From a virus, in the IMG/VR virus record IMGVR_UViG_3300020183_000046, positions 14,326 to 78,325 of that record: a stretch of 64,000 nt of DNA; one strand, written 5' to 3'. The translations under genes were made by a program, and so were the position numbers. The first letter of the stretch is position 1. Each line of letters opens with the position of its first letter. A model generated the notes under the pieces. The model did no database searches. It was not told where the DNA came from and saw only the letters and a program-made list of their open reading frames with translations. This document shows positions 8,527-63,998 of this stretch, in pieces.

Positions 8527-10638
<2,112 letters not shown>

Positions 10639-14183: not shown

Positions 14184-14378
14184 TTACTTGATCCTTGATT
14201 CCAAATCGTTAATCCTATTGAATTCTTGATATGCTCGTTCAGATCTCTCTGAGAGGATATCAGATATATCATTTAGGATAATTTCATTTTCAATTTGCTC
14301 ATCCAGATAATTATCGATCGCTTCTTTCAGATACCTTTTACGATGCCATTCTGGAGTATATGGTTTGTAGTGTGTCAT
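14184..14378 (-). CDS. Hypothetical protein
   Basis: YKPYTPEWHRKRYLKEA; fills intergenic gap in operon orientation. Confidence 0.65.
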   Translation of the reverse strand: MTHYKPYTPEWHRKRYLKEAIDNYLDEQIENEIILNDISDILSERSERAYQEFNRINDLESRIK

Positions 14379-39500: not shown

Positions 39501-41625
39501 GTCCATCAGATGCTTCATGAGTTCCAGTTACAATAGCAAGATAATGACCAGATCCTCCAGCATTTGCCTGTGTTGATAATCCAGAAGATGCCATAGTAAC
39601 AGTAATTGTATAGTTCCCTGCATTTTGTGCAGAGATTGTCAACCACTGTGTACCTTGCTGTTGAATATTAACTCCACCAACTGTTGTTCCTGATATAGCT
39701 CTTAACTGTACTTTCTTACCGACGTTTCCAATAAAGTATGCAGAATCTGCTGGATTGAAAGAGATAATTAAATTACTTGATCCATTACTTACAGTAAATG
39801 GATTTGTTGGTAAAACTTTTTCTTCAATACTATTGATTGGATATTGATCTGTCCCACATCCATTTCCTAAGAAATCAGCACCACTTCCCCTAACAAAAGA
39901 TTTTGATAACTGTGGTAAGTATGGTGTTGTTCTTGTGTACGAATTTGCAGCGACCCAAGAAGCTAAAATACCAGTGACGATTGGGCAGGAGAAAGAAGTT
40001 CCGCTGATGATATCATAGTTAGATGTTGAGGTATAGACTGTGTTACTAGTCCAATCATACTTTGGAGAAACCAATCTTATACCTGGAGCAGTAGTGGTTA
40101 CACCACCACCATAGTTTGAAAAATATGCCCAACGGTCATTATATTCTGTTGCACCAACAGAAATTTTATTTTGATTTGCATCAACTGAATTAAATACTGG
40201 ATCACTATATCCAGCAGTTCTAGTACCTGCAATATACTTTCCTTGGATTGGACCAGCAAAATTGCCAGAGGTATCTACAAATCCATTACCAGCAGATCTA
40301 GCTAAAATAATATTGTAAGTATCAGTTACAGTCTTTTCAATTTCATCAAGCAATTCTACCTCAACTCCAGCATCAGTTCCAGCATCGTTGAGTTCAATAT
40401 AAGGATATGATCCACTAGGAATTGTTGGACCAAATGATGCGTTGATAATAGCTGGACGATTGTTTCCTTTGTAGTTTGCATCTAAAGGATCGTTGTGATC
40501 AATTACTGCCTGATATGCCGATAAGATTTGAGAGTATGAAGAAGACAATCCGCTATTAAATGCCTTCAGTGAATATATCCTTGCCTTTCTAGAAACACCT
40601 GCTGTTCTACCAGATGACATGATTGCACAGAAAGTTCCGTGACCATTATCATCTTCGTTATTAGTACCGTATGCTCCAGCATAGTGTGAGAGTTGATATA
40701 CTCTATAGTTTTGTTGTTCTGCTGTACCGTTTAAGTTAGTTGCAAAATCTGGATCATAAAGTTCTGGGTGTAGTGCTGCGTTTGTTCCTGTTGGTCTGCT
40801 TGCTCCACGAACACCAGAATCAATAACATAGATGTCTACACCATCCCCAGTTTCAGTTGCACTAAATTCTCTATTGAGATATGAACGATCTGACTTTGTA
40901 ATTCTATCCAGGTGCCAGTAATCATGAATATTAATTGTTCCATATAAATTTGGTGCTGCTTGATATCTGCCCATGCCAGAATGAACAGTACAATAGTAGA
41001 ATAAAATGGATGGAGTCGTCGCTCCAACAACTATTCTAGTGTATGAACCAACAGTACCAGAAGTTCCAGATACAGATACTCCAGATGTTAATTGGGTTCC
41101 ACCACCATGAGTTCCATCTGGAGTTTCGGAAAATCTAAATGGGTGTCCAGCATTTGATGAGTGTGCAGTATCAAATGTATATGTGCCACCCTGTAGGAAT
41201 CCACTGAGGTTTAAGTATCTTATGTATATTCCACCAGATGTTTGAGAGAATGTATAAAAATTACTTCCACCAATATTAGCAACTCTTACATATATTGTAC
41301 CAGTGCCAGAAGTTGTAATATTTCTTGTTCCGTAAGTTGCATCCGCTGCTGCTTCATTTAAAGTTTCATCTTCATGGGCAACAACATTCGATTCAACTGA
41401 ATCTGCTGGATCACAAGTAACTTCCATATCCCATGTTGCCTGATGCCCTAATGAGCGAATATCATACAAGGCAGTTTCTTCGTTTTCCTCTGGTACATCA
41501 AAGGTAACGATACTAAAGCTTCTAAATTTCTCTACAAAAACTAAGTATCCAAATTGATCTAGGATAGAGTCCTTTGCCGCTTCTAGATCAGAATTATTGG
41601 TTACCTTGACTACTACCCTCTTCAT
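36553..41625 (-). CDS. Subtilisin (S8, proteinase K-like) protease with a cupredoxin-like insert, six Ig-like repeats and FN3-like C-terminus; probably virion-associated
   Basis: Triad motifs VDIYVIDSGV, NGHGT, SGTSFSCP; SAGN oxyanion; repeats IT.QP...YQWQ.S..GG..W.NI.GA....YRC; late promoter upstream. Confidence 0.88.
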   Translation of the reverse strand: MKRVVVKVTNNSDLEAAKDSILDQFGYLVFVEKFRSFSIVTFDVPEENEETALYDIRSLGHQATWDMEVTCDPADSVESNVVAHEDETLNEAAADATYGTRNITTSGTGTIYVRVANIGGSNFYTFSQTSGGIYIRYLNLSGFLQGGTYTFDTAHSSNAGHPFRFSETPDGTHGGGTQLTSGVSVSGTSGTVGSYTRIVVGATTPSILFYYCTVHSGMGRYQAAPNLYGTINIHDYWHLDRITKSDRSYLNREFSATETGDGVDIYVIDSGVRGASRPTGTNAALHPELYDPDFATNLNGTAEQQNYRVYQLSHYAGAYGTNNEDDNGHGTFCAIMSSGRTAGVSRKARIYSLKAFNSGLSSSYSQILSAYQAVIDHNDPLDANYKGNNRPAIINASFGPTIPSGSYPYIELNDAGTDAGVEVELLDEIEKTVTDTYNIILARSAGNGFVDTSGNFAGPIQGKYIAGTRTAGYSDPVFNSVDANQNKISVGATEYNDRWAYFSNYGGGVTTTAPGIRLVSPKYDWTSNTVYTSTSNYDIISGTSFSCPIVTGILASWVAANSYTRTTPYLPQLSKSFVRGSGADFLGNGCGTDQYPINSIEEKVLPTNPFTVSNGSSNLIISFNPADSAYFIGNVGKKVQLRAISGTTVGGVNIQQQGTQWLTISAQNAGNYTITVTMASSGLSTQANAGGSGHYLAIVTGTHEASDGPEFSGTQLYTQTDAQETGGTSTAIKNIPVDPGVDFNLSSLGTTNRGSVYPYVDIIVTWAAASGSLTGTPFANGASINLNLGLSSLTTWASEPITIQGYTLSGTSISGTGLTFNGTTGVLSGTVTASYQNLTYNITVTETTTGQSRNYNFTITGTGVAITVTTQPSNTSVEAGAGINATFTAAGTADDGSTVTFQWQRSTNGGSTWANISSLAGHSGETTGTLTVDDDFAFNGNQYRCVLNSATAVATTTTNSATLTVFRVVTIGTQPTNQTPVAPAAATFFVTASTLDAASISYQWEKSNDGISYTSVSGATSASYTTGATTYDADFGHYYRCICSATGASPVTSSAAQLLLTRTITVTTQPQNVTGAVGGTVQFSVVATTSDSDPGDITYQWQFSINGGASWSNVVGGSGATTATYTTPTLTASNDEQRYRCVLSCTGATPVNSGSATLQVETVTPVVIQQPTNKTANENATATFTCLGDVTMGQIGANAASSSFDVEDFTTPSAGSGNSIDPYSVSLQSQHEPPVTYQWQKSDDGGSNWGDISGATSASYTTGTLTYASDNGDRYRCKIDATGAAAPAYTNSVTLTVLRTFTITANPNNQTANENSTVTFSVTVSASSGAPSYQWQRSDDGGVNYSNISGATNSSYTTPQLVYTQDNNDRYRCVVTLTGSAGSQTSTFALLTVLRVITITTQPQSVAVIEGFTATFTVIATITSDVISYQWQISSNSGANWSNINGANSSSYTTAPTVYPTTPNVQYRCVLTNLAATTVTSSVATLTVNESEFVSAPATVTVTTDPDTLKTFSRTPTITTSAFVSQYTGSTHYSTFWRIKRVGDNTIIYDTASIFAAGDTGNLTTFTVPPGILSFDTVYSVQVKFRDQNGLESSYTSAQNFTTPFVDQPVIQTIVPAFNPTINVDPAQVKAGYAHTSSDWQFSPTNQFQTIIHQSLGNTANKTQYILPQDVSLDPNTTYYVRIRFNVNQV
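37160..39037 (-). repeat. Six tandem Ig-like (I-set-like) protein repeats of ~100 aa
   Basis: Recurrent TQP..., (Y/F)QW(Q/E).S, (Q/R/Y)YRC, S..A.L.V. Confidence 0.85.
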
Positions 41626-48775: not shown

Positions 48776-48783
48776 TATTTATA
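48776..48783 (-). promoter_or_regulatory. Late promoter TATAAATA for the tail-tip / U32 cassette operon
   Basis: Exact motif overlapping the stop codon of the large fibre gene. Confidence 0.8.
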
Positions 48784-51700
48784 CGATGCTCCAGTATCCG
48801 CCACTATTGATGGTAACCGTAGTTCCATTTGCAATTGTGATTGGACCTGCGCTCATACAATTATCTCCATTAGCAACAATTACATTTTCTGCTACTGTAT
48901 TACGATTGCGCTTGAAGATTCCGTAAGTATCAATCCACTGCTTATCCCCAGTTGCTCTCAGAACAGTTGTCTTCTGACCACTAGCGAGTGCTTCTGCTGC
49001 GTTGATATTAATACCACTCTTAGCTCTTACTTCAAGTGCGTAAGTTGTCTGGAAGTAATCGGTGCCACTATTTCCACCGAGCGTCATGGTGCCAGTATCA
49101 GTTAATGTGGCAACACAATTATCATTATCGGATCTCCAAACAAAATCATCTCCTGTTCTAAAGTATGTTGTGCCATCAGTAGCAAAGAAGAATCTTTGTT
49201 GGGCATCAGTCGAAGTGATCCAAACATTAGTTGAACCTCCCAGGTACGGAAGCGTCAGTGCAGAGTAACCATCGAGCAGGTCAGCGTTCAGGTTGGTAAC
49301 AACCGTAGTAGAACTAACCGTGAATGGTGCTGTTCCTGTAGCAACGCTAGATTCAAAGGTTGGAGATATCATCTTCACGTTAGCTGTAACATTACCATTT
49401 ATGGCAATTGTTAAAGCATCAGTTCTAGTTGTTGGGAATAGTTGATTTCCATTACTGCTTGTTTGAGAAATTCTAAATAAACCACTCAACTGACCAATAG
49501 ACCAGTGGGCAGTATCTATATCATGCAATTTGATACCAATACCATTACCAAAAGTTCTGCTTGCTACAGCATCACCAATACGCATCCATGGAGCGTTTTG
49601 ATCCAATCCAAGAGCGTTAACATCATTTGCATCTGTTCCAGCATTAAGAAGTCTCAGAATTGCATCGGTTTGAACTGCTGCAGCATTACCAATAGAAACT
49701 TTTGATGTGGTGAACCTTACATTACCATAAACGAGGTTTGCAGCATTATATCCAAAATCATTTGTGTCATTACCAAAACGAAGATAACCAGAATTTGAAT
49801 CTTGCTTACCTTTAACTGAGAGGGAGTTTGTTGCAGCCTTACCTACGGTAATACCATTAGCATCTGCAAGGTTGAGGATCGAAGTGCCTGTATTTGTCAG
49901 AGTAATTTGATCACCACTAAAATCATTAGCAACAATATCACCAGCTGATGTTCTCTTAACAATAGAACTATTGGTTGCAGTTTCTGATGGCTCAGCACCC
50001 TGCAGATAGCGTGCGTCCAACTGAGAAGCTGAACCATCGTTACCAGAGTGCCATACAGTATTACCGTTAATAGTTACATCACCAGCATTAATTCTGAGCG
50101 TACCAGCACCATCAGTAGCAGTACCACCAGAGACTCTGAATTGAACGTCATAGTTAGATGCCTGACCGCTAGATCTAAAATCAAATGTAGGAACCGAAGT
50201 AGTTCCAATTTGACCCAATTCAATACCAGCTCCAGTTGCGTTATCGTTAACTGCAAAGATCTGTGCAGAACCAGCGACTAATTCATTAGAAGAAGTAACA
50301 GTCCATCTTGTGCTTCCAGATGCACCAGGACCAATCAGGTAGACATCTTTACCAGATTTTCCAGCAGTGAAGGTGCAGGATCCAGTAATAGTTGAATAAA
50401 TTCTACCGTCATTTCCAGTACCTTGTACTGCACCATTTGAATCAACAATTATTGTTCCAATATTCTGAGTTGCATTAGCATCTTCATATAATGTATAAGT
50501 TCCACTATTTGCGATGTTGCCACTTGGTCCAGTGACTACATGGAAGTTTGGAATATAGAATTTAAACTTATTGCCCGTTCCAGCAACATAGAAGTTTTCC
50601 AGAACATACTTGTCTCTACCGAGAACTTCTGGAATGAATGGATCTCCAAGGGTTCCGTGACCTCTTCTATCTCCAATATTGTGACCAGACTGATACCACA
50701 GACCCTGTTGACCGTCAAGAAGGTCTGCATCTAATCCAGAAGAAGCACCATCATTATTAGATGACCAAATTTGATACCAAGAAGAATATGTTGTGGAAGT
50801 TCCACCACTATCACCACGGATCCAAAGATTGTTATTATCTGTGAATCCAAGTTGAGTTACTGCTCTTGTGCTGGATGCAGATTTTCTTCTATATGTAAGG
50901 ATACCTGCTTGGGTTCCACCATCACTCAGAGAAACTGTACTGTTGTTTCTCAAATGTAGTTCGATACCAAGAGATGAAGCACTTGGAGCTGGGTTTGAAG
51001 TTACTGGAACTTCGTCATGCTTCAACAGAGCAGTGCTAGCTGATTCTCCGTTAATGCTGATGTTGTAAGTTCCCTGTGCAATACGAGCAGGATCAATACT
51101 TCCTTGAGTAAACAAACTTGCATCAACAAGATTTGCAACACTTAAAGTACCAAAAGCACCCTGAATAAATTCGGCAATCAGACCAGATCCAGTTCCTTGA
51201 TCGAGACGAACTTCTCCACTATTGGTTACAATAAAACCAGCTTCTGTTTGGTTGGCAAGAGATTGATCACTCTTTCTCTTGCGGAATTTAGAAATACCAT
51301 AGTTACCATACAGAGATGTACTTGTGGTATTTGCATTTGCTTTTCTAACATCAATACTGATGTTGCCGTAACCACGATTGACTGTTCCCTTAACAGCAGT
51401 AAGAGTTGCTGCAGCAGATGGGGATCCGAGCTCAGTTGGAATAGTAACTGTAAAGTTACCGTTATAACCAGTTCCAGGGTCAGTTACTTGTGCTGCGGTA
51501 ATGACACCATTAGTAACCGTGAAACTTGCTCTAGCTACATCATCGGAACTTACTGATACGTTACCACCAGCAAGAGAAAGATTCTGATAAACTTGAGTAC
51601 CACTTTGAGGAGTATATCCAGTACCGCCACTTACAATAGTGATGCTCTCGATGTATGTACTATCAGTAATTGAAGCACTAATTACGATTGCATCAGCAGT

Positions 51701-54700
51701 TTCTGGTTTGATTGATTGTAATGCATATTCGTAAGAAGAATCTCCACGGAGGAAAGTAAATGCGTTAGCAACTCCTCTAGATGCAAGACGTTGTGGATCA
51801 ATTGTACCAGATACAATATTTGTGGCGTCAATATTTGTAGAAGTAAGTTGAGTCCAGTTGGCAGCATCTGCCGCTGAAGTATTAACTACTCTAAGAATGT
51901 CTACGATTCTTTCTCTTTCTACGTTACCACTAGTACTCGAAGGTGCGTTTGTGGTTACTGTATACTCGTTGGCATTATTGACAGCAACTACATAGAATCC
52001 ATCTGGAGCAGTACCTGATGTAAAATTGAGATAGACAAGATTACCATTTGCCAATCCATGACCAGACTCAGTTACAACAATAGTTGTGCTAGCTGTTTGT
52101 GAGTATGTACCAGTTCCAAGATTGGTTCCAGATCCATCAAGTACAAAGTCACCAGTATCAAACTTGATATTGTTTGCAATATCTAAGTATACTCTACCTT
52201 CAACAGCGGCAGAGATAGACGCATTAAATTGCGCTCCTCCTGGTGAGGTTGGAACAGTAATAACTGGGTTATTGTAATAACCTTTACCAATATTCGTGAT
52301 GGTTACAGATATAACGCTTCCATTTAATACATTAGCAGTTGCAGCTGCTTGAATACCATTTACAGTATCATTTGGTGCGCTGATAGTCAGTGCAAAGTTG
52401 TTGGCATAAAATGCGCCAGCAACATCGATATCGTACTCGTAAACAGCACCATCATTATACTCAGTGATAACTCCAGTAGCTCCTGTCGAACTACCATTTA
52501 CGATTGCTGCATTCGTAAACGTATATGTATTATTTGGGGTGAATGTGATGTACTGAGAATCTAAATCATTTTCTAAGATGTAGGAAACTGCAATACCTTG
52601 AGTTGTGAATACCTGAGTTCCAGTTCCTTGTGAAGTCAAATTAATTGCAGTTCCAGTGCCAGCATCTGTTTCATTTGCAGCAAGTTTTATTGTACTTGCA
52701 TTAACGACTATGGCATAGTAAGTGGATCCATTTGTAATACCACCGATAGAAGCTGTACCCTGAGTATAGATTAATCCATCGCCAGTTGTAAGTCCATGAG
52801 CGGCAATTGTAATTTCTTCAGTTGAAGTATTTACATCAGCTGGAGCAACGTTAAATACCTGTGTGGTTGTCTCAATCGCAATATCTCCAGCAACAACGTC
52901 TTCAAGAGCAAGACGTTCTTGAGTTGAGTTAACTGATGTGATATTGAATGGGCGCAGTGCTGGGATCTGATCAATATTGATCTTACCAGTTGCAGTTAAC
53001 TGAACAAGTGCAGAAGGAACTGCGTTTGTTGAATATGGTTGATTGAGATATGGTCCAAGGTTGTTGGAGATATAATCCCTAACTGCAGCCTGAGTAGGTA
53101 GCAGAGCATCTGATGCAAATGCACCACCAAGATTATCATCTGCAGAGAATCCATTAATGGTAATATCCCCACCAGTAATCTTAATTGATGTCAGTTCTGA
53201 AATTGCAACAGTACCAACAAAGCTGATAGCACCAGTTCTATTGAAGATAGTAACAAAATTACCTACCTTAAAGTCACCAAATTCGTTAGTACCCGATGTA
53301 TATACCTGACCATACTCTTCTTCTCTTGCCTCAAATGCAGATCCTCTACCAAATCCACCGTTCTGTGGTAGAGCAGCATAACTGTTTCCAGATCCAGCAA
53401 ATTCCCAAGTATGAGAAGATGAGTTAACTACCGATGGTCTATGTAATTTAATCGTCGCATTTACCAGTGGTGTGCTGGTTCCGCCAGCAATATTTCCGAG
53501 TGAATATGCATACCTGGTTCCAGTTGAGGTATTTGTAACATCAAGACCCTGATTGCTTACAATTGTAGCAGTGATCTGAGATCCTGGAGTTCCAGAAACA
53601 TCTTTCGTTTGTAAGATAATAAATTCAAGAGCTGGATTAGTATTTTCATATCCATCAATTTTAATAATATAATCTTCAACTGGGATATTCGTTAACGCTG
53701 GTCCACTGATTCTAATCTCTTGCCTTCCAGTTTGTGTACCATTTCCATCTACCTGGTTGGTGATGGAAAGAATTTGAGCAATATCAAATGAGTATGGTTC
53801 TGAGCGATAACCAGTAGCACGCAGAGCATATGTACCAAAGTTAGACGCAGAGTTTGTTACAGATGCATAACCACCAGACTGGCAAACGATACCGTCCTGA
53901 CAGAAGATGGCAAACACAGAAACAAGTTGTGTATAACCATCATTTAGAATGTTGTATGCAGTACCACCGAAAGAGATAATGGTAAATGCCGACGCAACCA
54001 TCGACTTACCTTGTGGATCATAGAGAGCTACAGTATTGCCTTGACCATCTATTTTCAATCCTGGACGAGGAACGTTTGGAGTTGATACCTTAGCTCCGTC
54101 GATCTCACAACCAGATCCACCTTCAAATGAAATCAGAGAAGAGTTTTGAATATATGGAGATGCTTCAATAATTGGAAGATCTAAGAAAGTATTGACAAGA
54201 GCGAAGTTATATGCACTAGATCCAAGTTCAGTAAGAATTGGATCTGGATATGTAATGTTAGTAATAGCAGAATTGTTTAAGATTGCACTGTCTAAAGCAG
54301 TCCAAAGAGTTGTAAGTGCAGAAGTTACGTTAGCACACTCTGGAGCATTAGAATCTACCGTTACTGCACTATTTGCAACTGGTACAATCTGGGAGAATCT
54401 TCCATCATCAAGATGTGAATTGATTGACTTCTTAGCAAGAAGTTTTGCATATGCATAAACTTGTCTTGAGAAAGCAACCTCATTAGCAATAAAGTTTTGA
54501 ACTCCAGCACCAACGTACTTATTAGCCGCTTCTGCAGTTGCTGAGTTACCAGTATAGCGAAGGTCATACTGCCATGCTCTCAAAACTTTGACGATATCAT
54601 CGATACACTGCTGATCTCCATCTGCATAGGTTCTTGTTATGCCAGTGAGATTTCCTGGTGATCCAGTGCTACCAATTGCTTGAGTGACAATAGCGGTCAG

Positions 54701-57700
54701 AGTAGTGATTGTTGATGCTACATCCTGACAAGATGGATTTTGAATATCAAGTGTAATGCTTGTATCTTTAACCTGAGTGTATGCACCGAGGTTATAAGTT
54801 GTAAATGCAGAACTGAAGGTCTCATTACGCATCGCTGCAATAGCAAGATCTCTAGCATAGTTGAAGACAATTACTGACTGGTTCTCTTCTCCAACTACAT
54901 GAGCTCCATCAATATAGTATTTGGCAGCATCATAAACTTGATCATTACCACCAAAAGTTAAGTTATATGAGAGTGCTTTTAAGAAGTCAACTGTATCATC
55001 TTTGCAAGATTGCTTACCAGTTGGAATTGTAAATGATTGCTCAGCAACCATTCTTTCAACTGCCATTTCTGCAATCATTACAGCGTTAGCAAGAATCAGA
55101 GATGAAGAATCTGCATAACGATCTGCTCTTGGTTTGCTGCCAGGAGTTACATGTGGAAGTGGAGTGGTGAACGTTACAGTTCCACTTTCTCCGCTATTTG
55201 CTAGGCTTGCAAGATTAATTGTAAGAGTTCTATAGTCTGGGGTATCTGCTACCTGATAATTACCGTCTGCGAGAGCTCCACTCCAATTAAAACTATATGT
55301 TTGCAGAGCGTATCCTGCATGACCCAGGGGGGTGGTTAAAGTGAGAGTTTGACCACTGATGCTATATGATCCAGATCTTGTATTTGCAGAGATGCTTGAG
55401 TAAGAAGTTCCATCAATAGAAATCTGAGTTCCTCTTGTGCTTGAGGAAGTATGATGGGACTTAATTGCTGCATATGCCTCTTCTGCGATAAACTCTTGGT
55501 TTACCTTAATAGCCTCTGCACCATCTCTATAACGATCAGTTTGATTTACTGCAGTAAATCCATATGGAGAGTTTCTAAGAGATGCAAGAACATAGTTGTT
55601 TGCCGCTACAACTTGCTGATCACCAGCAACATCAATAGCAGTTCCAAAACGAGAATATGAACCCCTTACAACAAAAGCAATTGAGAAACCATCTGGTCTT
55701 TCAATTCTATGAGTAATATACTTTCTTCCGTTCAGATCTTCGATGTTATCTTGAACACTAAATGTTCCAGTTCTAGTTGCCGAGTCTGGTGCATTCAGTG
55801 TAAATCTGACTGTTTGTGTTCCAGAGCTATAAGAACCTCTAGCGATACCCAGGACAGTTCCTGCAGGAAGAGTTGGGAAAGTAGTGCCAGATGTGAATGT
55901 ATCACAGTGATAAACTTTAGTTGTTGCTCCACCAGTAGTGAATGTAAATTTGAGACCAGCTTCTCCCAGAGTAGTTAAGTTGCCCCAGAATGCATTAACT
56001 AATGTTGTATCGACTCCAGTAATTGTACACTGGATTGTTGTTCCATTTTGAGTATATGAATATGCTGCTGATGCACCAAAGTTAATTGTTGAACTTTGGA
56101 ATCCATAGAGATAAACTTCCTGACCAACTTCATAATCATGATAAGTTGTTGATCCAAGATTAACAATTGGACCAGAATATGTCTGCTGAGTTGTCAGAGA
56201 AGTATTGATATTGGCAATAGCAAGAACTCTGGTATTCAGATCAAATCTTTGGAATCCCTTTCCAGCAGATGTAATATCTACAGTGATTGGATCATCTTGA
56301 CCAGATGCATTTTTTCTAGTTGCGTTTGCCTGACTTGTTGCAATTCTAACCCAATTAGAATTTTCTACATAAACAGCATATGTTGTACCGTCAGAAAAAC
56401 CACCAATAGCGCCCATCTTACTGGCACGATAGATGACCTGATCTCCAGTTTCAAATTGGTGATTGAGAATATAGATATTGTTTGACTCTGGCATTACCTT
56501 GCCAAAGGTCAGATAGTGAATTGTATTTGATCCTACAGCAGTAATATCAACTAAACCCTGCTTTGTAGTTGAAGATGCGTCAAAGTTTGCATTTGCAAAG
56601 CTATCGTAAAGTTCGAAAGTATTTGCAGTTAAGACACGAACATAATATACAGAGTTGTGGACTAATCCTGGAACGCTAGTATTACCATCATTATCATAAT
56701 GTACAGCAGCACCAGTGAATAATCCGTGACCATTAACGGTCAATACATCAGTTGTAGCATTTACATTTGATGCATTTAAGAGGAGAGTTTCTCTCTCAGA
56801 ATCAAATGTGTGCTGATAAATTTGGTTAGAAATAGTTTCAAGCTCTGGTCTCAGAGACTCTACGTCAACAAGAGCAGCATTAGGAGAAGTTGGTGGGTTA
56901 TTTGGATCATTTACAACTTGACCTAAAGTTGGAGCATAGTAAATTGTATCTACACTAGAAAATACATCATTATTTCCAGATGTAACTAAAACGGTTACGC
57001 TACCAGTTGAATACGGAGAAGCTACTGGTCCAGTAAATGTTACTGCCTTAACTATAGCAGTGAGAGATCCTCCCTCATTTGTAAGTGCAAAACCAGGGAG
57101 AAGACTTGTGTTATTGCCAGTATTATCTCTAAACGTTAACAGTTGAATGTTTTCTCCCTGGAACTTCTGTCCAGGAACTGCTGGAATTTGCTTTACTTCT
57201 GGCTCGTAGTAGAGTCGCTGCTTATCGTCAAATACGAAAGCATATTTCCAAGTATAAAGCGTTGCACTATTGGGATCGTTTGGATTCTGTAGTGCGTCTC
57301 TAAACGTAACTCCATTAATATAAGTTTCGTTAGATGCCTTAACCATGTGACGATCACGGTTAGATGGTCTAACGACTACACGACGTAGGTTATCACCAAT
57401 AAGAGAACAGTTTCTTGGCAGTGAGATTGGGTTATCTTCTAAGTATTCTCCACCAGAAACGATAATCGAAACATATTCATCACTTGGATCTGGAGTTGCC
57501 TTCTGCAATCCATAAGCAACTTGAGCTGCCTTCTTAATGGTTCTAAGAGGTCTAGCTGCCGATCTACCATCATTATCATCATCACCAATAGTCGATGAAA
57601 CGTAAACACGTCCACCAGTATCGTTAGTAGCAACTCGATACACGAAGTCTGTAGTAGCAATACGTCTCGATTGGTCACTCAGAGGAGGAGTATCTGCAGT

Positions 57701-58303
57701 TGGATGGAAAGTTTGCAGGTATGTTGGACTCGTTATATCAGTGTCCTGGAAGTTAAGTAAATTGGGAGCACGAAGATTCAGTGCTGGGTTAACGATTGTA
57801 CCAATATCCAGATTGATAATCGTTGCAGTATCTGAAATGATCGAACGAGTCGTTCTGATTTGACCTTCAACGTCCAGTTCGAATTGTGGATTTGTATTAT
57901 TAATACCAATACGAACATCACCAAGATTATCCTTAGTTACAATAAGAGCACTGGATTCTGATACTCCACTTCCAACAGTGATGCCAAGCTTATCACTAGC
58001 ATTAATGACTAAGGAACGTCTAATTCTATATGCAAGTGTATTTCCTGCAGTAATTGTACCACTTGCAGCATCTGTAAAAGTAAATGAATCTGAGTTGACT
58101 ACAGTGATTGTATAGTTGCCACTTGTAGCTCCACCAGAGTTTATATCAATCTCAAGTTCTTCGGTATCGATGAATCCGTGCCCAACTGAAATTACTGTTA
58201 CAGTAGTGCCAACTCTAAAATAAGTGGCATTTACCCAACTTCCAGTGGCAACTTTACCTGAACCTTCAATTCTCTGTTGTTCAGAATTAATTCTCAGACT
58301 CAT
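48779..58303 (-). CDS. Giant tail fibre / tailspike-like protein (3174 aa)
   Basis: Beta-helix entry motif VYVS..GDD.NDG...P.RTIKKA...GEY.E.NP...GDNLR; HG..TGD repeats; (D/N)ADLLDG motifs; C-terminal N.MSAGPITI..G.TVT...G..WSIV. Confidence 0.88.
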   Translation of the reverse strand: MSLRINSEQQRIEGSGKVATGSWVNATYFRVGTTVTVISVGHGFIDTEELEIDINSGGATSGNYTITVVNSDSFTFTDAASGTITAGNTLAYRIRRSLVINASDKLGITVGSGVSESSALIVTKDNLGDVRIGINNTNPQFELDVEGQIRTTRSIISDTATIINLDIGTIVNPALNLRAPNLLNFQDTDITSPTYLQTFHPTADTPPLSDQSRRIATTDFVYRVATNDTGGRVYVSSTIGDDDNDGRSAARPLRTIKKAAQVAYGLQKATPDPSDEYVSIIVSGGEYLEDNPISLPRNCSLIGDNLRRVVVRPSNRDRHMVKASNETYINGVTFRDALQNPNDPNSATLYTWKYAFVFDDKQRLYYEPEVKQIPAVPGQKFQGENIQLLTFRDNTGNNTSLLPGFALTNEGGSLTAIVKAVTFTGPVASPYSTGSVTVLVTSGNNDVFSSVDTIYYAPTLGQVVNDPNNPPTSPNAALVDVESLRPELETISNQIYQHTFDSERETLLLNASNVNATTDVLTVNGHGLFTGAAVHYDNDGNTSVPGLVHNSVYYVRVLTANTFELYDSFANANFDASSTTKQGLVDITAVGSNTIHYLTFGKVMPESNNIYILNHQFETGDQVIYRASKMGAIGGFSDGTTYAVYVENSNWVRIATSQANATRKNASGQDDPITVDITSAGKGFQRFDLNTRVLAIANINTSLTTQQTYSGPIVNLGSTTYHDYEVGQEVYLYGFQSSTINFGASAAYSYTQNGTTIQCTITGVDTTLVNAFWGNLTTLGEAGLKFTFTTGGATTKVYHCDTFTSGTTFPTLPAGTVLGIARGSYSSGTQTVRFTLNAPDSATRTGTFSVQDNIEDLNGRKYITHRIERPDGFSIAFVVRGSYSRFGTAIDVAGDQQVVAANNYVLASLRNSPYGFTAVNQTDRYRDGAEAIKVNQEFIAEEAYAAIKSHHTSSSTRGTQISIDGTSYSSISANTRSGSYSISGQTLTLTTPLGHAGYALQTYSFNWSGALADGNYQVADTPDYRTLTINLASLANSGESGTVTFTTPLPHVTPGSKPRADRYADSSSLILANAVMIAEMAVERMVAEQSFTIPTGKQSCKDDTVDFLKALSYNLTFGGNDQVYDAAKYYIDGAHVVGEENQSVIVFNYARDLAIAAMRNETFSSAFTTYNLGAYTQVKDTSITLDIQNPSCQDVASTITTLTAIVTQAIGSTGSPGNLTGITRTYADGDQQCIDDIVKVLRAWQYDLRYTGNSATAEAANKYVGAGVQNFIANEVAFSRQVYAYAKLLAKKSINSHLDDGRFSQIVPVANSAVTVDSNAPECANVTSALTTLWTALDSAILNNSAITNITYPDPILTELGSSAYNFALVNTFLDLPIIEASPYIQNSSLISFEGGSGCEIDGAKVSTPNVPRPGLKIDGQGNTVALYDPQGKSMVASAFTIISFGGTAYNILNDGYTQLVSVFAIFCQDGIVCQSGGYASVTNSASNFGTYALRATGYRSEPYSFDIAQILSITNQVDGNGTQTGRQEIRISGPALTNIPVEDYIIKIDGYENTNPALEFIILQTKDVSGTPGSQITATIVSNQGLDVTNTSTGTRYAYSLGNIAGGTSTPLVNATIKLHRPSVVNSSSHTWEFAGSGNSYAALPQNGGFGRGSAFEAREEEYGQVYTSGTNEFGDFKVGNFVTIFNRTGAISFVGTVAISELTSIKITGGDITINGFSADDNLGGAFASDALLPTQAAVRDYISNNLGPYLNQPYSTNAVPSALVQLTATGKINIDQIPALRPFNITSVNSTQERLALEDVVAGDIAIETTTQVFNVAPADVNTSTEEITIAAHGLTTGDGLIYTQGTASIGGITNGSTYYAIVVNASTIKLAANETDAGTGTAINLTSQGTGTQVFTTQGIAVSYILENDLDSQYITFTPNNTYTFTNAAIVNGSSTGATGVITEYNDGAVYEYDIDVAGAFYANNFALTISAPNDTVNGIQAAATANVLNGSVISVTITNIGKGYYNNPVITVPTSPGGAQFNASISAAVEGRVYLDIANNIKFDTGDFVLDGSGTNLGTGTYSQTASTTIVVTESGHGLANGNLVYLNFTSGTAPDGFYVVAVNNANEYTVTTNAPSSTSGNVERERIVDILRVVNTSAADAANWTQLTSTNIDATNIVSGTIDPQRLASRGVANAFTFLRGDSSYEYALQSIKPETADAIVISASITDSTYIESITIVSGGTGYTPQSGTQVYQNLSLAGGNVSVSSDDVARASFTVTNGVITAAQVTDPGTGYNGNFTVTIPTELGSPSAAATLTAVKGTVNRGYGNISIDVRKANANTTSTSLYGNYGISKFRKRKSDQSLANQTEAGFIVTNSGEVRLDQGTGSGLIAEFIQGAFGTLSVANLVDASLFTQGSIDPARIAQGTYNISINGESASTALLKHDEVPVTSNPAPSASSLGIELHLRNNSTVSLSDGGTQAGILTYRRKSASSTRAVTQLGFTDNNNLWIRGDSGGTSTTYSSWYQIWSSNNDGASSGLDADLLDGQQGLWYQSGHNIGDRRGHGTLGDPFIPEVLGRDKYVLENFYVAGTGNKFKFYIPNFHVVTGPSGNIANSGTYTLYEDANATQNIGTIIVDSNGAVQGTGNDGRIYSTITGSCTFTAGKSGKDVYLIGPGASGSTRWTVTSSNELVAGSAQIFAVNDNATGAGIELGQIGTTSVPTFDFRSSGQASNYDVQFRVSGGTATDGAGTLRINAGDVTINGNTVWHSGNDGSASQLDARYLQGAEPSETATNSSIVKRTSAGDIVANDFSGDQITLTNTGTSILNLADANGITVGKAATNSLSVKGKQDSNSGYLRFGNDTNDFGYNAANLVYGNVRFTTSKVSIGNAAAVQTDAILRLLNAGTDANDVNALGLDQNAPWMRIGDAVASRTFGNGIGIKLHDIDTAHWSIGQLSGLFRISQTSSNGNQLFPTTRTDALTIAINGNVTANVKMISPTFESSVATGTAPFTVSSTTVVTNLNADLLDGYSALTLPYLGGSTNVWITSTDAQQRFFFATDGTTYFRTGDDFVWRSDNDNCVATLTDTGTMTLGGNSGTDYFQTTYALEVRAKSGININAAEALASGQKTTVLRATGDKQWIDTYGIFKRNRNTVAENVIVANGDNCMSAGPITIANGTTVTINSGGYWSIV

Positions 58304-58320: not shown

Positions 58321-58854
58321 TTAAGATACGACTGTGATTTCTAATATTCCAATCCACTTAACAGTGGATGATGATGTAACAGATTCAACTTCAAATGTAA
58401 AAAATGGTGCTCCACCAATTTGAAAAGGATCTGGAGTTACACTCCACTGTTCCTGTCCAGGTAAATTTTGACGAATTACATTTTCATATACAGATGCTAC
58501 AGTTGAAACACCAGATCCATTTGTAGTAACAATAACTTCAAATTGAGTTGCATATACATATGTATTTGTTGTTGTTTCCTGTCCAAAAATTCTTGCAGTA
58601 ATAAAGGAAACAGTATCATTTGCTAACGCTGGTGAATTCGTTGCAAGTGCTTGAGTACCATCTAAAGTCAACTGATTGGTATTAAGTACCGAATTAGTTT
58701 GAGCTTTTGTGATGTAAGTATCTTTGTTAGCATCAGCAAACTGATCGCTAGTCATATGCATAGCAGAAATATTCTTCAGTGCATACTCTGTGCTGAGTAC
58801 TTCTGTAGAACCTACTGCAAAGCCACCAATTGACGAAAAATTCTTAATTGCCAT
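58321..58854 (-). CDS. Virion structural protein (baseplate/tail-associated)
   Basis: F.S.GGF.V...LKNI; located between two giant tail genes after a late promoter. Confidence 0.7.
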   Translation of the reverse strand: MAIKNFSSIGGFAVGSTEVLSTEYALKNISAMHMTSDQFADANKDTYITKAQTNSVLNTNQLTLDGTQALATNSPALANDTVSFITARIFGQETTTNTYVYATQFEVIVTTNGSGVSTVASVYENVIRQNLPGQEQWSVTPDPFQIGGAPFFTFEVESVTSSSTVKWIGILEITVVS

Positions 58855-58874: not shown

Positions 58875-58882
58875 TATTTATA
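58875..58882 (-). promoter_or_regulatory. Late promoter TATAAATA
   Basis: Exact motif. Confidence 0.8.
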
Positions 58883-61800
58883 CCTTGACCTTTGTGGTTG
58901 TATATCTACCAGTGAAAGATGTTGACGATGTTGCCGCACTTGATTTTGCGATGGAAATATTGACATTATTTCCAACAACTGTCACACTTGCATCCACAAG
59001 ATCATTACTAGAAGTTACTGAGTTGGTAATAGTTGCATATGCAGTAGTACCAGCTGCAGCACAAACTGTGGTTACTTCGAGCATGTGTACTTTACCATCA
59101 TTACTCTCAATTGTTACAAGTGTCTTAGCACCCTTATACGCTGTCTTATTGAACTGAACGATGGTTGCGTTTGCTCCGAAGGAAGAGAGTTGACCACCCT
59201 CTACTCTACAATCATTCAGTTCCATGAATGTAGCAGTGCTATCAAATACGGTCAGATATGACTCAGTGCCAGCATTCCAACCACGATTGATCTTCCACGC
59301 AGCTTCTGCGCCATTTGCATCAAGCGAAAGGAATGGTTTTGAATCGAGTTGAGTTATATAATCTTGTTGAAGAATATCAAGTCTGGTAAATGCAGGAGTT
59401 GTATTTGTAATAGTTGCAACTGGGAAAGTTACATCATTTGCTGGAGTAGTCCCACCGAGGAGAGAACCTGCAATTGTGATAATTTCACCTACCTCATAAT
59501 CGGATCCTGGAACAACAAGACTTACACTTAGAATAGATCCAGCACCATCAGTTATAACTGTGAATGTAGCTCCAGATCCTTCAAATTGGGAAGTTGATGT
59601 AACCGTAGATGTTTGCGATGGTGTATAAACACCAGCTCCAGAAGTTACTGTTCCGATAGTAGCAATTTCGCCCAGAACTGGAACCGACTTGAATCTAAGT
59701 CCATTTGTAATTTCTACGTCTTTTCTAGATCTTACTCTTAAAACTGATGATCCAAGTGTGCGGACATCCAAAGGATCAGATCCAAGAGAAACTCCGTCAA
59801 GAACTAAAGTTCCACTAGTCTCAAAAGTTCTTGCTGTATAAAGCTTGAATTTGTCTTGTACAATATCAAGACTATTGATGCCCTGATTGTAGAAGAAGAA
59901 TGTATCTTCATTACTTCCAGGGGAAAGCTCGGTAAGGATATATGTATCCTGGTTTACGTCACGGACTCCACCAAGAGAAACGAAGTCTTGTCCATTATAT
60001 CCTTCAAATTGTTGTTGTTGAGTGTTGAATCTAATACCACCTGTTTGTCGATCCCCAGATGTAGGTCTTTGGTTGGTATTACCAGAAGGAACAACGAACA
60101 TCGCTGTTGAATCAATCTTAACATTCTTACCAACTTGGGGTTTAATGACAATACCAGCACCTTCGATATCGGTTACTGTGATTGTCTTACCTGAACCAGA
60201 ACCAATTGTTGCAGAATTTAATGTGATAGTATCTCCTTCGTTATATCCAGCTCCGCCAGAATAAACAGAGATTGTTGTTATGTCTCCACCAGCAACAGTG
60301 ACGTTGAAAGTTGCATCAGATCCACTACCATTAGTTGTGGAAGTTACATTTGTGTATGTACCAGTGGTAAATCCAGTTCCAGTTCCAGTAGCTGTTACTG
60401 TGATAATTTGACCAAATGAAGTGGTAGCAGTTGTCCCAATATTTGAAATAATGTTATCTTCTAATTGTAAATTTGCATTTACCTTTAAATTTCCCTTAAT
60501 TGTAGTATTACCACTTTCAGTATCTACTCTGAATGTTTCTGAGGATCCATCGGTAATTAAGAAATCTTTATTCAGACCACCAGTTAATTGAAGATTTCCT
60601 TCCCCTAAAGGAATAAGAGTTATATCTACATCTTGATTTGATCCAATAGCTTCAATTGATGCAGCATTAGTAATTCTAAGACCACTTGTAAATGTTCCAA
60701 TATCTACTGATTCTCCAATAGAATCTACTTTAAAAAATGGACTTACGGTTGCAAAAGAAGAATCAACAATTAAATCGTTTATTGTTCTAAGTTCAGTTGA
60801 ACTTAAAGAGAGAGATTTTGTACCAGAGATAGAAAATCCTAGAACATCACTCGAATCTCTATACAAACCAGTTGTAAGAGAGTTTTCAAATTTTAAAGAT
60901 GGAGACGCTGCAGATCCATTTTGAAGATCAATAAGTGCATTATTGATCTGATTGTTGGAACCATTCGCAGTAAGATTATTACTTAATGTTGTAGTTCCAT
61001 TTACTGTTAAACTTCCAGTAATTGAAGCAGTTGATAAAATATTTAAAGATCCACTTGCGGTTATATTTCCAGTTGTTGTAAGACCAGAAGTTCCCAAAGA
61101 AGAACTATTTGATCCAGATGAAGTTGTAAAAGTACCAGACGCTGAAATATTGTAAATATCTGATACTATTGCTCCATCATTTTTCAATTCAATAATTGAT
61201 TCAGTATTAACTGTATTTGCTAATAGGGATAAATTTGATCCTGATCCTAATCCAGCAAAATTCTGTGGATCAAACAATATTGTTTGATTTGGGTAGAATG
61301 TATTACCGCCACTAGTAACTACTGCGGAACTTACATATCCAACCTCAGTAACTGTAAACTGGAATCCAGCTCCGCCACCAGATCCAACATTAGAGTCTGA
61401 AACAGATAATATGTCTGCAACTGTATATCCCGATCCAGCCGATTGAATATTCGTTACTTGACTAATACCAGTATCATTACCATCAATAGTATAAGAGAAT
61501 CCACTTCCTCCCCCTATCAATCCATTCGGTACAGAAACAACATCTCCAGCTTTGTATCCAGATCCCTGTGTTGCAAAACTAACACTACTTACGGAACCAG
61601 CAGAAGCGGTGACATTAATTTGTCCACCACTTCCATACGATCCAACAGTTCCAGAAATAATGTCAATATATGCATCTTCCGACATGCTTCTTCCATGAAC
61701 TGTGCATGTATAAAATACAGTATTTGAAGAAGTAGCAGCGGTTGGTTTGATTATTATATCGACAAATGCACCTGAACTTCCAGCTGCCCCAACAGTCTTG

Positions 61801-63998
61801 ACTACAAAATTCGGATCAGTAGACGTAGTGCTATCTAAAACAAATGGATGATTAGATACGGTTGGACTTGACAAATCGAAACGATATGTATTTCCTTTTA
61901 TGAGGGTAAGATCTGGAGATTCTTGCCCATTAATAAAATATCTATTGGGTGATATTGGGGTAACCTGCAAAGTTCCAGATCCACCACTAGTGAATGTAAC
62001 TATATTACCTTGACTAAATGTTCCTCCAGATATTGTTGCTGGATCAACAAATGCAAAGTTAGACCCAACATAGGTTACTGTTGCAGTAACTCCAGAACCA
62101 TTATTTGCAGTATCACCAACATTAATTGTTCCAGTAATTCCAGAACCAGACATATCAAGTTTCGTTCTTGGTGCAACCGTTACTGTATATGTTGTTGTTG
62201 GAGTGTTGAATAAGTCAATTTGTTGATATGTCCCATTTGTATATCCACTTCCAGCATTAGTTATAGTTCCAAAGAAACCACGAACAAAGAAAGTTGCTAT
62301 TGCTCCACTTCCAGTTCCACCAGTAAACGCTACTGCTGGATATGTACCAGCTCTATATCCAGATCCATTTGAAAGAATATTACCAGCGACAGGCAATACC
62401 GTAATAGAGGCTTGAGCATCTGATCCAGCTCCACCAACAATTGATACTGTTGGTGCTGTTAAATAACCAGATCCAGGAGAAGTTAAAGTTATTTCCGAGA
62501 TAGACCCAGTTTCAATATCTAAGGTTGCATCAGCAACAGCATCTATGTCTGGATTTCCAGAAAACGTAACAAATGGAACTTTTGAATAACCATAACCATT
62601 ATAATTTAAAGTTATAGTATTCAGTTCATATTTTAGTGCATCTACTGTAGCTGCAGCTCCAGTTCCAGAGTCGAGTGCTTGTGGTGTGATTATCAGAGTT
62701 GGCACTGAAGAAAATTCTCCAGCTCCAGAAGTATTAATTTCTCTAATTTCACTACCAATATTAACTGTGAATGATCCTGGAGATGCTGGAGTTTCACTTA
62801 AGGTAATGTTGATTGGAATACCAACGATATAACCAGTTCCAGGATTATTGATTGTAAAGCTAGTAATACTTCCACCACTTACATTTGGAGTAATTAATGC
62901 AGTAGTACCTCTTATATAATGTTGTTCTTGTGTTAGTGGAGGTGTTAAAGTTATAACAGGACCCCCAGGAGAGCCTGATAACTGAATCGTATCATTATCA
63001 AGATCTCTATTTCTTACATAATAAGTATTTCCACTAGTCAATCCACCAATACTTGAATTGCCATTTGAATCATAAATTACTGCATCGTTATTTTTGAAAT
63101 GTACAATTGTTAAATCTATTGTGTTTCCAGTAATTAAACTTGCATCAAATATATTATTTGGTGGATCTGGAACAGTGGCGGTTGGACTAACATATCCAGA
63201 TCCTCCACTGGAAATTCCAATAACTCCAATTCCTCCTCCAGATCCTCTTACTACAGAAAATGAAACCGATCCAGATACAGGTGCTTGTAAAGTTGTTACT
63301 GTTGGAGATAGTGTATAAAGTGATCCAGGGTTTGTGATTGTTATTGTGGAGATTAATCCAGTACTCTTTAAAGTTGCAGTTGCAGTTGCGGGAGAATCTG
63401 GATTTGATAATATAGCTGCGCTATAAATTCCTGGAGTATATCCAGTTCCAGCATCAGCAATAGTTATAGTATCTAATGACTTTTTATTAACTCCAATATT
63501 TTTATTTGAAAAATATCCATAAGAGGAAACACCAACTTGAACATTATTTCCAAGATAGAAATTAGTTTGTCCTACTGCTGATTTGCCAAGTGAAAAGACT
63601 TTGCCAGAATCAAAGAAAATTTTCTCTGGCGAGATAACCTCAGCATTCAAAACAATATCTTCATCCGCTGATGGATCAAGAATAATTTGACCACTGTTGG
63701 AGCTTAGGGTATTGCCAGAAAGTCTGAGGTTGCCAGTTTCAATATAAGCTGGATATAAATTAGTTGTACCAGTTCCATCTGACAGAGTAATATTTGCGGC
63801 GCTCTGAGCATTCTGTGTAACTGCCGAGAAGGTAACATTACCAAGCTCTTGATCTACAAGGAATAAATCACCTACTCTGAAGTTACCAGATTGGTCCTGA
63901 GAAGTATAGTAAACCCTACCACCGTTTAACTCATTAACTTCATTAGATTGTACAACACCAGCAGTATTATTGGTAATATCTGATCCAGTTCCAATATA
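58878..63998 (-). CDS. Giant baseplate/tail structural protein, 5'-truncated by the window edge
   Basis: Frame stays open from 63650 to the edge (YIGTG...GRVYYTSQDQSGNFRVGDLF); many ITN.GSGY repeats; GGIRFNT...FEGY.G motif; cupredoxin-like module. Confidence 0.85.
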   Translation of the reverse strand, partial: YIGTGSDITNNTAGVVQSNEVNELNGGRVYYTSQDQSGNFRVGDLFLVDQELGNVTFSAVTQNAQSAANITLSDGTGTTNLYPAYIETGNLRLSGNTLSSNSGQIILDPSADEDIVLNAEVISPEKIFFDSGKVFSLGKSAVGQTNFYLGNNVQVGVSSYGYFSNKNIGVNKKSLDTITIADAGTGYTPGIYSAAILSNPDSPATATATLKSTGLISTITITNPGSLYTLSPTVTTLQAPVSGSVSFSVVRGSGGGIGVIGISSGGSGYVSPTATVPDPPNNIFDASLITGNTIDLTIVHFKNNDAVIYDSNGNSSIGGLTSGNTYYVRNRDLDNDTIQLSGSPGGPVITLTPPLTQEQHYIRGTTALITPNVSGGSITSFTINNPGTGYIVGIPINITLSETPASPGSFTVNIGSEIREINTSGAGEFSSVPTLIITPQALDSGTGAAATVDALKYELNTITLNYNGYGYSKVPFVTFSGNPDIDAVADATLDIETGSISEITLTSPGSGYLTAPTVSIVGGAGSDAQASITVLPVAGNILSNGSGYRAGTYPAVAFTGGTGSGAIATFFVRGFFGTITNAGSGYTNGTYQQIDLFNTPTTTYTVTVAPRTKLDMSGSGITGTINVGDTANNGSGVTATVTYVGSNFAFVDPATISGGTFSQGNIVTFTSGGSGTLQVTPISPNRYFINGQESPDLTLIKGNTYRFDLSSPTVSNHPFVLDSTTSTDPNFVVKTVGAAGSSGAFVDIIIKPTAATSSNTVFYTCTVHGRSMSEDAYIDIISGTVGSYGSGGQINVTASAGSVSSVSFATQGSGYKAGDVVSVPNGLIGGGSGFSYTIDGNDTGISQVTNIQSAGSGYTVADILSVSDSNVGSGGGAGFQFTVTEVGYVSSAVVTSGGNTFYPNQTILFDPQNFAGLGSGSNLSLLANTVNTESIIELKNDGAIVSDIYNISASGTFTTSSGSNSSSLGTSGLTTTGNITASGSLNILSTASITGSLTVNGTTTLSNNLTANGSNNQINNALIDLQNGSAASPSLKFENSLTTGLYRDSSDVLGFSISGTKSLSLSSTELRTINDLIVDSSFATVSPFFKVDSIGESVDIGTFTSGLRITNAASIEAIGSNQDVDITLIPLGEGNLQLTGGLNKDFLITDGSSETFRVDTESGNTTIKGNLKVNANLQLEDNIISNIGTTATTSFGQIITVTATGTGTGFTTGTYTNVTSTTNGSGSDATFNVTVAGGDITTISVYSGGAGYNEGDTITLNSATIGSGSGKTITVTDIEGAGIVIKPQVGKNVKIDSTAMFVVPSGNTNQRPTSGDRQTGGIRFNTQQQQFEGYNGQDFVSLGGVRDVNQDTYILTELSPGSNEDTFFFYNQGINSLDIVQDKFKLYTARTFETSGTLVLDGVSLGSDPLDVRTLGSSVLRVRSRKDVEITNGLRFKSVPVLGEIATIGTVTSGAGVYTPSQTSTVTSTSQFEGSGATFTVITDGAGSILSVSLVVPGSDYEVGEIITIAGSLLGGTTPANDVTFPVATITNTTPAFTRLDILQQDYITQLDSKPFLSLDANGAEAAWKINRGWNAGTESYLTVFDSTATFMELNDCRVEGGQLSSFGANATIVQFNKTAYKGAKTLVTIESNDGKVHMLEVTTVCAAAGTTAYATITNSVTSSNDLVDASVTVVGNNVNISIAKSSAATSSTSFTGRYTTTKVKV

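Follow-up and report, generated by a model that had tools for sequence, protein, structure and literature searches.

What are domains that resemble a photosynthetic antenna protein doing in the tail fibre of a virus? The question is raised by a stretch of DNA of 64,000 nucleotides from a marine T4-like virus of cyanobacteria (positions 14,326 to 78,325 of IMG/VR virus record IMGVR_UViG_3300020183_000046, here called the window). Its list of open reading frames (ORFs) and translations includes a giant fibre or baseplate-associated virion protein of 3174 amino acids (aa), encoded on the minus strand at 48779..58303. The ORF matches the PHROG family phrog_5342, 'tail fiber protein', with E 0, and is the orthologue of PHM2_096 of cyanophage P-HM2, a member of T4-like gene cluster 513 that also bears the annotation 'tail fiber protein'. 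A preliminary description, made from the letters alone, had pointed to two helical units in this fibre, likened them to phycobiliproteins and proposed that the phage might attach bilins to its own tail. The analysis reported here leaves little doubt that the units are homologues of phycobiliproteins and shows that one is inserted within the other; pigmentation of the fibre is a plausible but tentative reading.

The kinship is visible only to profiles; single-sequence searches with the fibre units found nothing. These units gave no phycobiliprotein match in Pfam, NCBIfam, the PHROG names or, with phmmer, the PDB. Pfam family PF00502 gave no match to the fibre, to a 467-aa region of it or to its complete unit (unit B), either at the curated threshold or at E up to 1, and no Pfam domain is precomputed on close orthologues of the fibre. 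A megablast search of the region against phage records found no match, the ESM Atlas gave no usable match, and word-indexed homologue searches near full length yielded few fragments.

A family was obtained by scanning 1.84 billion representative proteins with aa 905-1350 of the fibre as query. This gave 200 relatives, nearly all of them giant proteins and many matching in up to 19 stretches. A hidden Markov model (HMM) of the repeated module was built iteratively from 150 of these relatives; the module is ~170 aa long and was found in ~820 instances in the 150 giant proteins, with up to 35 pieces per protein. Two profiles, A1 (unit B plus 18 relatives) and A4 (a broader alignment of 81 rows taken from database proteins, IMG/VR loci and the window), were compared with the PDB sequences and returned 60-84 matches, every one a phycobiliprotein. 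The best for A1 was the phycocyanin beta chain 6jpr_B (E 8.3e-7), with the first helices of the module on residues ~35-60 and its conserved cysteine on Cys82. For A4 it was a C-phycocyanin alpha chain (6y3d, E 4e-6), whose ...KCSRDIGYY...CLVAGG pairs with ...KCkrDIGf...DL..GG in the A4 consensus.

Profile-profile comparison was made with CpcA and CpcB alignments built from the cpcBA loci of cyanobacterial genomes. With hhalign, 871 module instances matched CpcA with Prob 95.6 and E 1.1e-8, and CpcA and CpcB together with E 7e-9, module positions 3-100 falling on phycobiliprotein positions 35-139. The four phycobiliprotein segments originally picked out in the fibre appear in the same order in the global profile-profile alignment, the helix-G stretch KMKEAA... 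included. PF00502 itself matches 10 of the 81 family members and, directly, giant ORFs of S-PM2 and P-HM2; it is precomputed on ~32 of the 120 giant relatives listed. Sequence identity between module and phycobiliproteins is 15-22%.

The predicted fold gave the same answer. Unit B, modelled by AlphaFold2 with A4 as the alignment, formed six helices with a predicted local distance difference test score (pLDDT) of 88.3 and a predicted template modelling score of 0.87. A Foldseek search of the PDB with this model returned only phycobiliproteins, mostly phycoerythrin beta, at probability 1.0 and template modelling scores up to 0.72. In VIA-align the top 50 matches were likewise all phycobiliproteins; phycoerythrin and phycocyanin beta chains aligned over 129-145 residues with Z 15-17 and a root-mean-square deviation of 2.2-2.6 Å, model residues 1-154 lying on chain residues ~28/34 to 172/177/184. 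The search for a globin-like fold by profile and Foldseek that had been suggested at the outset therefore came out in favour of one, and the module is, as modelled, the globin-like core of helices A-H. Among predicted viral structures (BFVD) the proteins with this fold all came from Synechococcus phages or uncultured caudoviruses; they were tail or structural proteins, and none was named phycobiliprotein-like. PDB entry 8u0f_C, 'Bacterial fluorescent protein', also stands among the best structural matches of unit B (Z 16.4), beside the phycoerythrin beta chains.

Could the resemblance have arisen by chance, or by convergence of helical bundles? Middling Z scores are common with helical models, and the fibre's own units, searched singly, match nothing in Pfam, NCBIfam or the PDB. 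On the other side, A1 and A4 return phycobiliproteins exclusively, hhalign reaches E ~1e-8, the Z scores of 15-17 extend over the whole domain and PF00502 matches the relatives. Chance or convergence is effectively refuted by these results, and the module is almost certainly a true homologue of phycobiliproteins; the likeness first noticed by eye is borne out by both sequence profile and predicted fold.

The module is not, for all that, a complete phycobiliprotein. Structural and profile alignments alike start at phycobiliprotein residue ~28-38, which places the N-terminal X-Y hairpin outside them. This hairpin pairs the alpha with the beta subunits of phycobiliproteins. As the module is without it, a canonical alpha-beta monomer or ring assembly is not expected, and (alpha-beta)3 rings seem unlikely.

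How the two units are arranged was examined with the module HMM. The motifs that drew attention to the region are all at the residues originally given in the 3174-aa minus-strand ORF: RYRDGAEAIK begins at aa 924 (window position 55534) and RYADSSS at aa 1062, the four motif cysteines are Cys1100 (SCKDD), Cys1192 (PSCQD), Cys1233 (QCIDD) and Cys1323 (PECAN), and aa 1342 ends at window position 54278. Unit A opens with N-terminal helices at aa 921-954 (55442..55543, minus strand, as are all parts of the fibre), equivalent to phycobiliprotein helices A-B and matching HMM positions 2-35 with an independent E value of 7e-5. This piece is also present in the orthologues L002-L007 and P-HM2. It is followed by a beta-strand insert domain, aa 955-1057 (55133..55441), delimited in an AlphaFold model of aa 905-1355, where model residues 69-144 contain strands of low to moderate pLDDT; a domain-family search matched this insert to no known family. 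Unit B, aa 1058-1228 (54620..55132), is a complete phycobiliprotein-fold domain, with HMM positions 1-171 aligned over aa 1058-1227 at E 1e-56. Its Cys1100 (55004-55006) and Cys1192 (54728-54730) are equivalent, in profile alignments, to beta-Cys82 and beta-Cys153. Next comes the C-terminal part of unit A, aa 1226-1351 (54251..54628), equivalent to helices E-H and matching HMM positions 36-164 at E 3e-25, with Cys1233 at 54605-54607 and Cys1323, at the start of the last helix, at 54335-54337.

The same three-piece pattern was recovered by two further independent HMM scans. The beta domain and all of unit B are thus inserted within unit A, after its first helices, as had been read from the letters. 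In the 451-aa model of the whole region the N-terminal piece of unit A is a long helix (residues 19-46) and its C-terminal helices lie at residues 327-439; pLDDT is only 68.9 and the structural matches are filled by unit B, so that the proposed closure of unit A is supported by the HMM and not by structure. The model sets the N-terminal helix of unit A beside unit B, roughly in the position of helix Y, at moderate confidence and with uncertain placement. The orthologue in P-HM2 is nested in the same way, its QCIDD motif being identical and identically placed, and it has an extra partial unit.

Domain nesting is general across the module family. In S-PM2 p091 (L010, NC_006820.1 50053-63267, frame residues 690-1546) one full unit precedes an unbroken run of three N-terminal pieces, a further full unit and three C-terminal pieces, a three-deep 'matryoshka' nest. 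Its units are all of the type with Arg in the first cysteine motif (CxRD), and all have the second cysteine. In the representative proteins (P0003, P0005, P0012 and others) insertions into module copies favour two sites. One follows HMM position ~35, where a loop joins helices B and E; the other, at HMM positions ~112-131, is the G-H loop that precedes the last helix. The second of these coincides with the site of phycoerythrin beta's own insertion. One giant relative, P0207, is labelled in NCBI as a 'Dehalococcoidia bacterium' metagenome-assembled genome and is probably a mis-binned phage contig.

Homology of fold does not in itself imply pigment, and the residues at the attachment sites were therefore compared. 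In phycobiliproteins Asp85/87 hydrogen-bonds the pyrrole nitrogens of the bilin and Arg84/86 binds its propionate. Cys1100 and Cys1233 of the fibre align to Cys82 in the profile alignments, and Asp1103 and Asp1236 occupy the Asp85 position. In the global profile alignment to CpcB, Cys1192 falls exactly on the ...G-D-C-S... cysteine, beta-Cys153, where the last helix starts, and this register agrees with the structural one, in which model residue 154 lies on chain residue 172/177 (VIA-align). Both bilin-attachment cysteines are thus present in each unit, as had been proposed, at positions that coincide with beta-82 and beta-153. At position 84 the fibre has Asp1102 and Asp1235 in place of Arg, and the preceding Lys83 is replaced by Ser in SCKDD and by Gln in QCIDD.

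Across ~690 module instances at ~20-30% identity, Cys82 is conserved in 97%, Arg84 in 80%, Asp85 in 99% and beta-Cys153 in 56%; the first cysteine is missing in 18. The exchange of Arg for Asp, noted as a caveat from the start, therefore holds for the fibre units and not for the wider family, where the module consensus KCxRDIGY matches KCARDIGYY of CpcA. Asp stands at position 84 in 13% of instances, which form a CxDD subtype. The CxRD subtype (542 instances) has K-C-x-R-D-I-G-Y, an aromatic residue at helix-B position 1084 and the second cysteine in 42%. The CxDD subtype (88 instances), to which both fibre units belong, has [N/D/S]-C-x-D-D, Arg at position 1084 and the second cysteine in 98%.

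The near-invariance of both cysteines in the CxDD subtype, and the physical interlacing of units A and B, might be explained without any bilin if the cysteines formed interdomain or interchain disulfides, or bound metal, and so stapled the nested domains together once the virion is out in oxic seawater. The cysteine positions tell against this. In phycobiliproteins beta-82 and beta-153 carry separate bilins ~34 Å apart, and because the fibre cysteines have these two registers a disulfide within one domain is, by analogy, unlikely; the earlier caveat that each pair could simply be a disulfide is weakened to that extent, and the intradomain bond was rejected on the fold register (VIA-align, CpcB profile alignment). 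CxDD units moreover also occur singly, with no partner unit close by (e.g. P0015, P0013), and the first cysteine is independent of the second, since the CxRD subtype retains the first and has the second in only 42% of instances. Stapling by disulfide or metal is, on balance, improbable.

The main rival to bilin binding is a pigment-free one: a phycobiliprotein gene, captured from a host and stripped of its X-Y hairpin, would have been reused as a structural or receptor-binding module, a helical brick or spacer that tolerates insertion. The module would then form much of the giant fibres, with the conserved Cys, Arg and Asp serving folding or packing. The heavy repetition and nesting of the module (up to 35 pieces in a protein, nests of the form N-N-N-F-C-C-C) fit this well, as do the 18 copies without the first cysteine and the loss of Arg84 and Lys83 in the fibre's subtype. 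The covarying swap between subtypes, aromatic to Arg at position 1084 with Arg to Asp at 1102, also resembles an internal contact and not one with a ligand. Packing does not easily explain, however, why the chromophore-contacting Cys and Asp are retained in 97-99% of very divergent copies. Apo-phycobiliproteins are generally unstable without bilin, and a free reactive cysteine would be unusual in an extracellular fibre. The pigment-free brick is judged almost as plausible as bilin binding, and it too can only be held tentatively.

The distribution of the module bears on both readings. In the phage collection the module was found in 284 records, all cyanophage, and this restriction to phages of bilin-containing hosts is not what a mere brick would lead one to expect. 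Many module-bearing phages, on the other hand, have no bilin genes of their own, which suits the pigment-free reading: PebS-type reductases were found in 31 records and CpeT, a T-type lyase, in 113. Among isolates, P-HM2 has six module matches together with cpeT, a PebS type and ho1, and P-SSM4 has four module matches. S-PM2 has 11, with cpeT 1.4 kb upstream of a module-bearing giant gene, and S-RSM4 at least 12, with cpeT adjoining a module-bearing giant gene but for a single HNH gene; no bilin reductase or haem oxygenase was found in S-PM2 or S-RSM4. P-SSM2, from which the characterised PebS comes, carries PebS and, by its annotation, bilin genes, and gave no module match with three profiles (A4, A1 and PF00502), and the podovirus P-SSP7 gave no module match.

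Two features of the cpeT loci may be recorded. In both phages cpeT lies on the same strand as the giant 'short tail fiber' gene and just upstream of it (S-PM2 163952-177267, L207; S-RSM4 NC_013085.1 162121-177038). Three small ORFs, one of them a 2OG-Fe(II) oxygenase, lie in the interval in S-PM2; in S-RSM4 it holds one HNH endonuclease gene. The occurrence of T-type lyase genes in cyanophages, and their closeness to module-bearing genes in these two phages, count in favour of bilin attachment. Within the S-PM2 'short tail fiber' coding sequence (NC_006820.1 168556-173383) 16 tRNA features share its locus tag, apparently through a mistake in the coordinates or annotation of the RefSeq record.

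The possession of PebS by the phage had been part of the original argument for a pigmented tail. This part fails because PebS does not track the module, and co-occurrence with PebS was rejected as support on the strength of the two counts, 31 and 284 records, and of the P-SSM2 counterexample. Genes for HO, PcyA, PebS and CpeT are almost confined to myocyanophages (review, PMC10452541). As bilin genes and module thus occur in the same phage lineage, any association between them is confounded by ancestry.

A possible function for pigment is offered by adsorption. Some cyanomyoviruses adsorb in the light only, even with host photosynthesis blocked, and the cause is a standing puzzle (PMC6628666). 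P-HM2 and P-HM1 show no adsorption in the dark (Liu et al. 2019, PMC6628666), and S-PM2 adsorbs in a light-dependent way that does not rely on host photosynthesis; P-SSM2 does adsorb in the dark, if less than when illuminated, and so does P-SSP7 (PMC6628666). The module is present in P-HM1, P-HM2 and S-PM2 and absent in P-SSM2 and P-SSP7, which parallels the published pattern. That its presence tracks light-dependent adsorption in the phages compared is no more than suggestive.

A mechanism can be proposed in these terms. During assembly in the infected cell the fibre cysteines would acquire thioether-linked bilins, either phycoerythrobilin from phage PebS or host bilins, or both. Attachment might be autocatalytic, as in ApcE, or fall to lyases, those of the S/U type coming from the host and those of the T type from phage or host. 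The free virion would have chromophores on its baseplate fibres, absorption of light would shift the conformation or deployment of the fibre, and this light-driven change would account for the light-dependent adsorption of P-HM1, P-HM2 and S-PM2.

The steps of this scheme do not deserve equal confidence. Attachment of bilin to the fibre's own CxDD units is plausible, judging from the attachment residues. The odds are lower for these units than for others because they have lost the pair of basic residues by which phycobiliproteins hold the propionates; binding by CxRD units elsewhere is rated somewhat higher. Light-gated adsorption is unlikely on present indications, and the whole proposal, that cyanomyovirus virions bear covalent bilins on phycobiliprotein-derived fibre domains as a photoreceptor gating adsorption to the light period, should be regarded as speculative and doubtful.

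Several points weigh against bilin binding or its proposed role. To our knowledge no bilin has been shown so far on any cyanophage virion. Where phycobiliproteins have the propionate-binding Arg84 the fibre units have Asp, they have also lost Lys83, and the helix-E face is wholly remodelled in the CxDD subtype, so the canonical pocket may be lost. Without the X-Y hairpin, recognition of the module by lyases is uncertain. PebS and the module do not co-occur, the counts above allow at most 40% of module-bearing records to carry a phage cpeT, and neither cpeT nor ho1 was found in the 78-kb record, which is, however, only an estimated 42% complete. The correlation with phenotype, finally, concerns four to five phages only and is confounded by phylogeny. 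The lack of any report of coloured virions is only weak counter-evidence, since a few dozen bilins on each virion would give an estimated ~0.01 absorbance at 1e12 particles per ml.

The same estimate bears on a further alternative, in which the virion is pigmented but does not sense light: the bilins would serve as a screen, photoprotective or quenching, or else the domains would be a sink for bilins in the infected cell, and adsorption would not be under their control. Photoprotection was part of the original proposal. Conservation of the sites favours this as much as it favours bilin binding in general, and nothing in the analysis ties light absorption to a conformational output. But with a few dozen bilins per virion the screening would be slight, and the alternative leaves aside the parallel between module presence and light-dependent adsorption in the few phages tested. 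It is considered very improbable.

Directly upstream of the fibre gene, at 58321..58854 (minus strand), lies the gene for a small virion structural protein of T4-like gene cluster 512 (phrog_5449, E 9e-48); this protein shares 61.6% identity with PHM2_095, a virion structural protein of P-HM2. Further upstream, at 58878..63998 (minus strand), a baseplate-wedge-like giant protein (phrog_32294 'baseplate wedge subunit', E 0) is truncated by the contig end; a six-frame module scan of the window gave no module match in it. The order of these genes around the fibre gene is matched in P-HM2 and S-PM2. The nearest isolates to the source phage are P-HM2, P-HM1 and MED4-213, the identity being ~61% for the gene-cluster-512 protein and 36% for the fibre region, and the best tblastn matches of that region were P-HM2 and P-HM1 (36% identity across 96% of the region).

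The bilin reductase lies elsewhere in the window, ~39 kb from the fibre gene. It is a PebS-type ferredoxin-dependent enzyme of 211 aa at 8943..9578 on the minus strand (PF05996 E 3.8e-16; phrog_7278 E 9e-63), 59% identical to PebS of P-SSM2 and 61% to the P-HM2 homologue. The source record is a 78-kb IMG/VR contig with an estimated completeness of 42%; neither cpeT nor ho1 was found in it, in line with the original caveat that the window holds no lyase gene. A 1690-aa ORF at 36553-41625 (minus strand) matches phrog_27200, of unknown function, together with stretches resembling head, virion, tail and protease PHROGs, and is without the phycobiliprotein-like module.

A literature search, with subscription journals largely outside its reach, found no paper in which virion proteins of phages are said to contain phycobiliprotein-like domains. 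What is already known is that PF00502 is flagged on some relatives in databases, without comment. To this the window adds the two-cysteine CxDD subtype, a clean two-unit nest with a beta insert, a fibre orthologous to that of P-HM1 and P-HM2, two phages with strictly light-dependent adsorption, and the negative result on PebS co-occurrence. Besides the puzzle of adsorption there is a second, that cyanophages carry bilin-synthesis and T-type lyase genes even on Prochlorococcus strains with almost no phycobiliprotein. Fibre domains derived from phycobiliproteins and bearing attachment residues offer a single bench-testable hypothesis for both. Were the virion a photoreceptor, it would be the first light-sensing virus particle, and phage cpeT, pebS, pcyA and ho1 would have a second function. 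Even if the module is pigment-free, the capture of a photosynthetic antenna protein as a virion building block is new, as is the nesting of domain in domain, an unusual protein architecture.

Among the closest counterparts are the fibres of isolates. Those of P-HM2 (PHM2_096), P-HM1 and MED4-213 likewise follow the gene-cluster-512 protein and have the same nested CxDD units; module number and subtype vary among isolates, S-PM2 p091 being a three-deep CxRD nest. This protein and the 'short tail fiber' giants of S-PM2 and S-RSM4 are more distant relatives of the fibre, and none of the isolate proteins is annotated as phycobiliprotein-like. With the bilin photoreceptors, phytochromes and cyanobacteriochromes, the analogy is functional only: they too have a Cys-linked bilin, but their folds are GAF domains and no homology was seen. 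The phycobiliprotein alpha and beta subunits themselves (PF00502: CpcB/CpeB, CpcA/CpeA) share with the module helices A-H, the collinear segments, Cys82, Asp85 and beta-Cys153; most copies bear the full K-C-x-R-D-I-G-Y of CpcA, and the length is ~140-170 aa after the hairpin. The module differs in lacking that hairpin, in its low identity of 15-22%, in lying inside virion proteins of 3000-7000 aa, nested in one another, and, in the fibre units, in having Asp for Arg84 and Ser or Gln for Lys83; its bilin binding is putative. The best precedent for a phycobiliprotein domain outside the alpha-beta context is ApcE, a large multidomain protein whose phycobiliprotein-fold domain is interrupted by a loop and attaches its bilin without a lyase. 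Likened here by description, the two differ in setting: ApcE is a cellular part of the phycobilisome that touches allophycocyanin rings, whereas the fibre domains are repeated, nested and extracellular.

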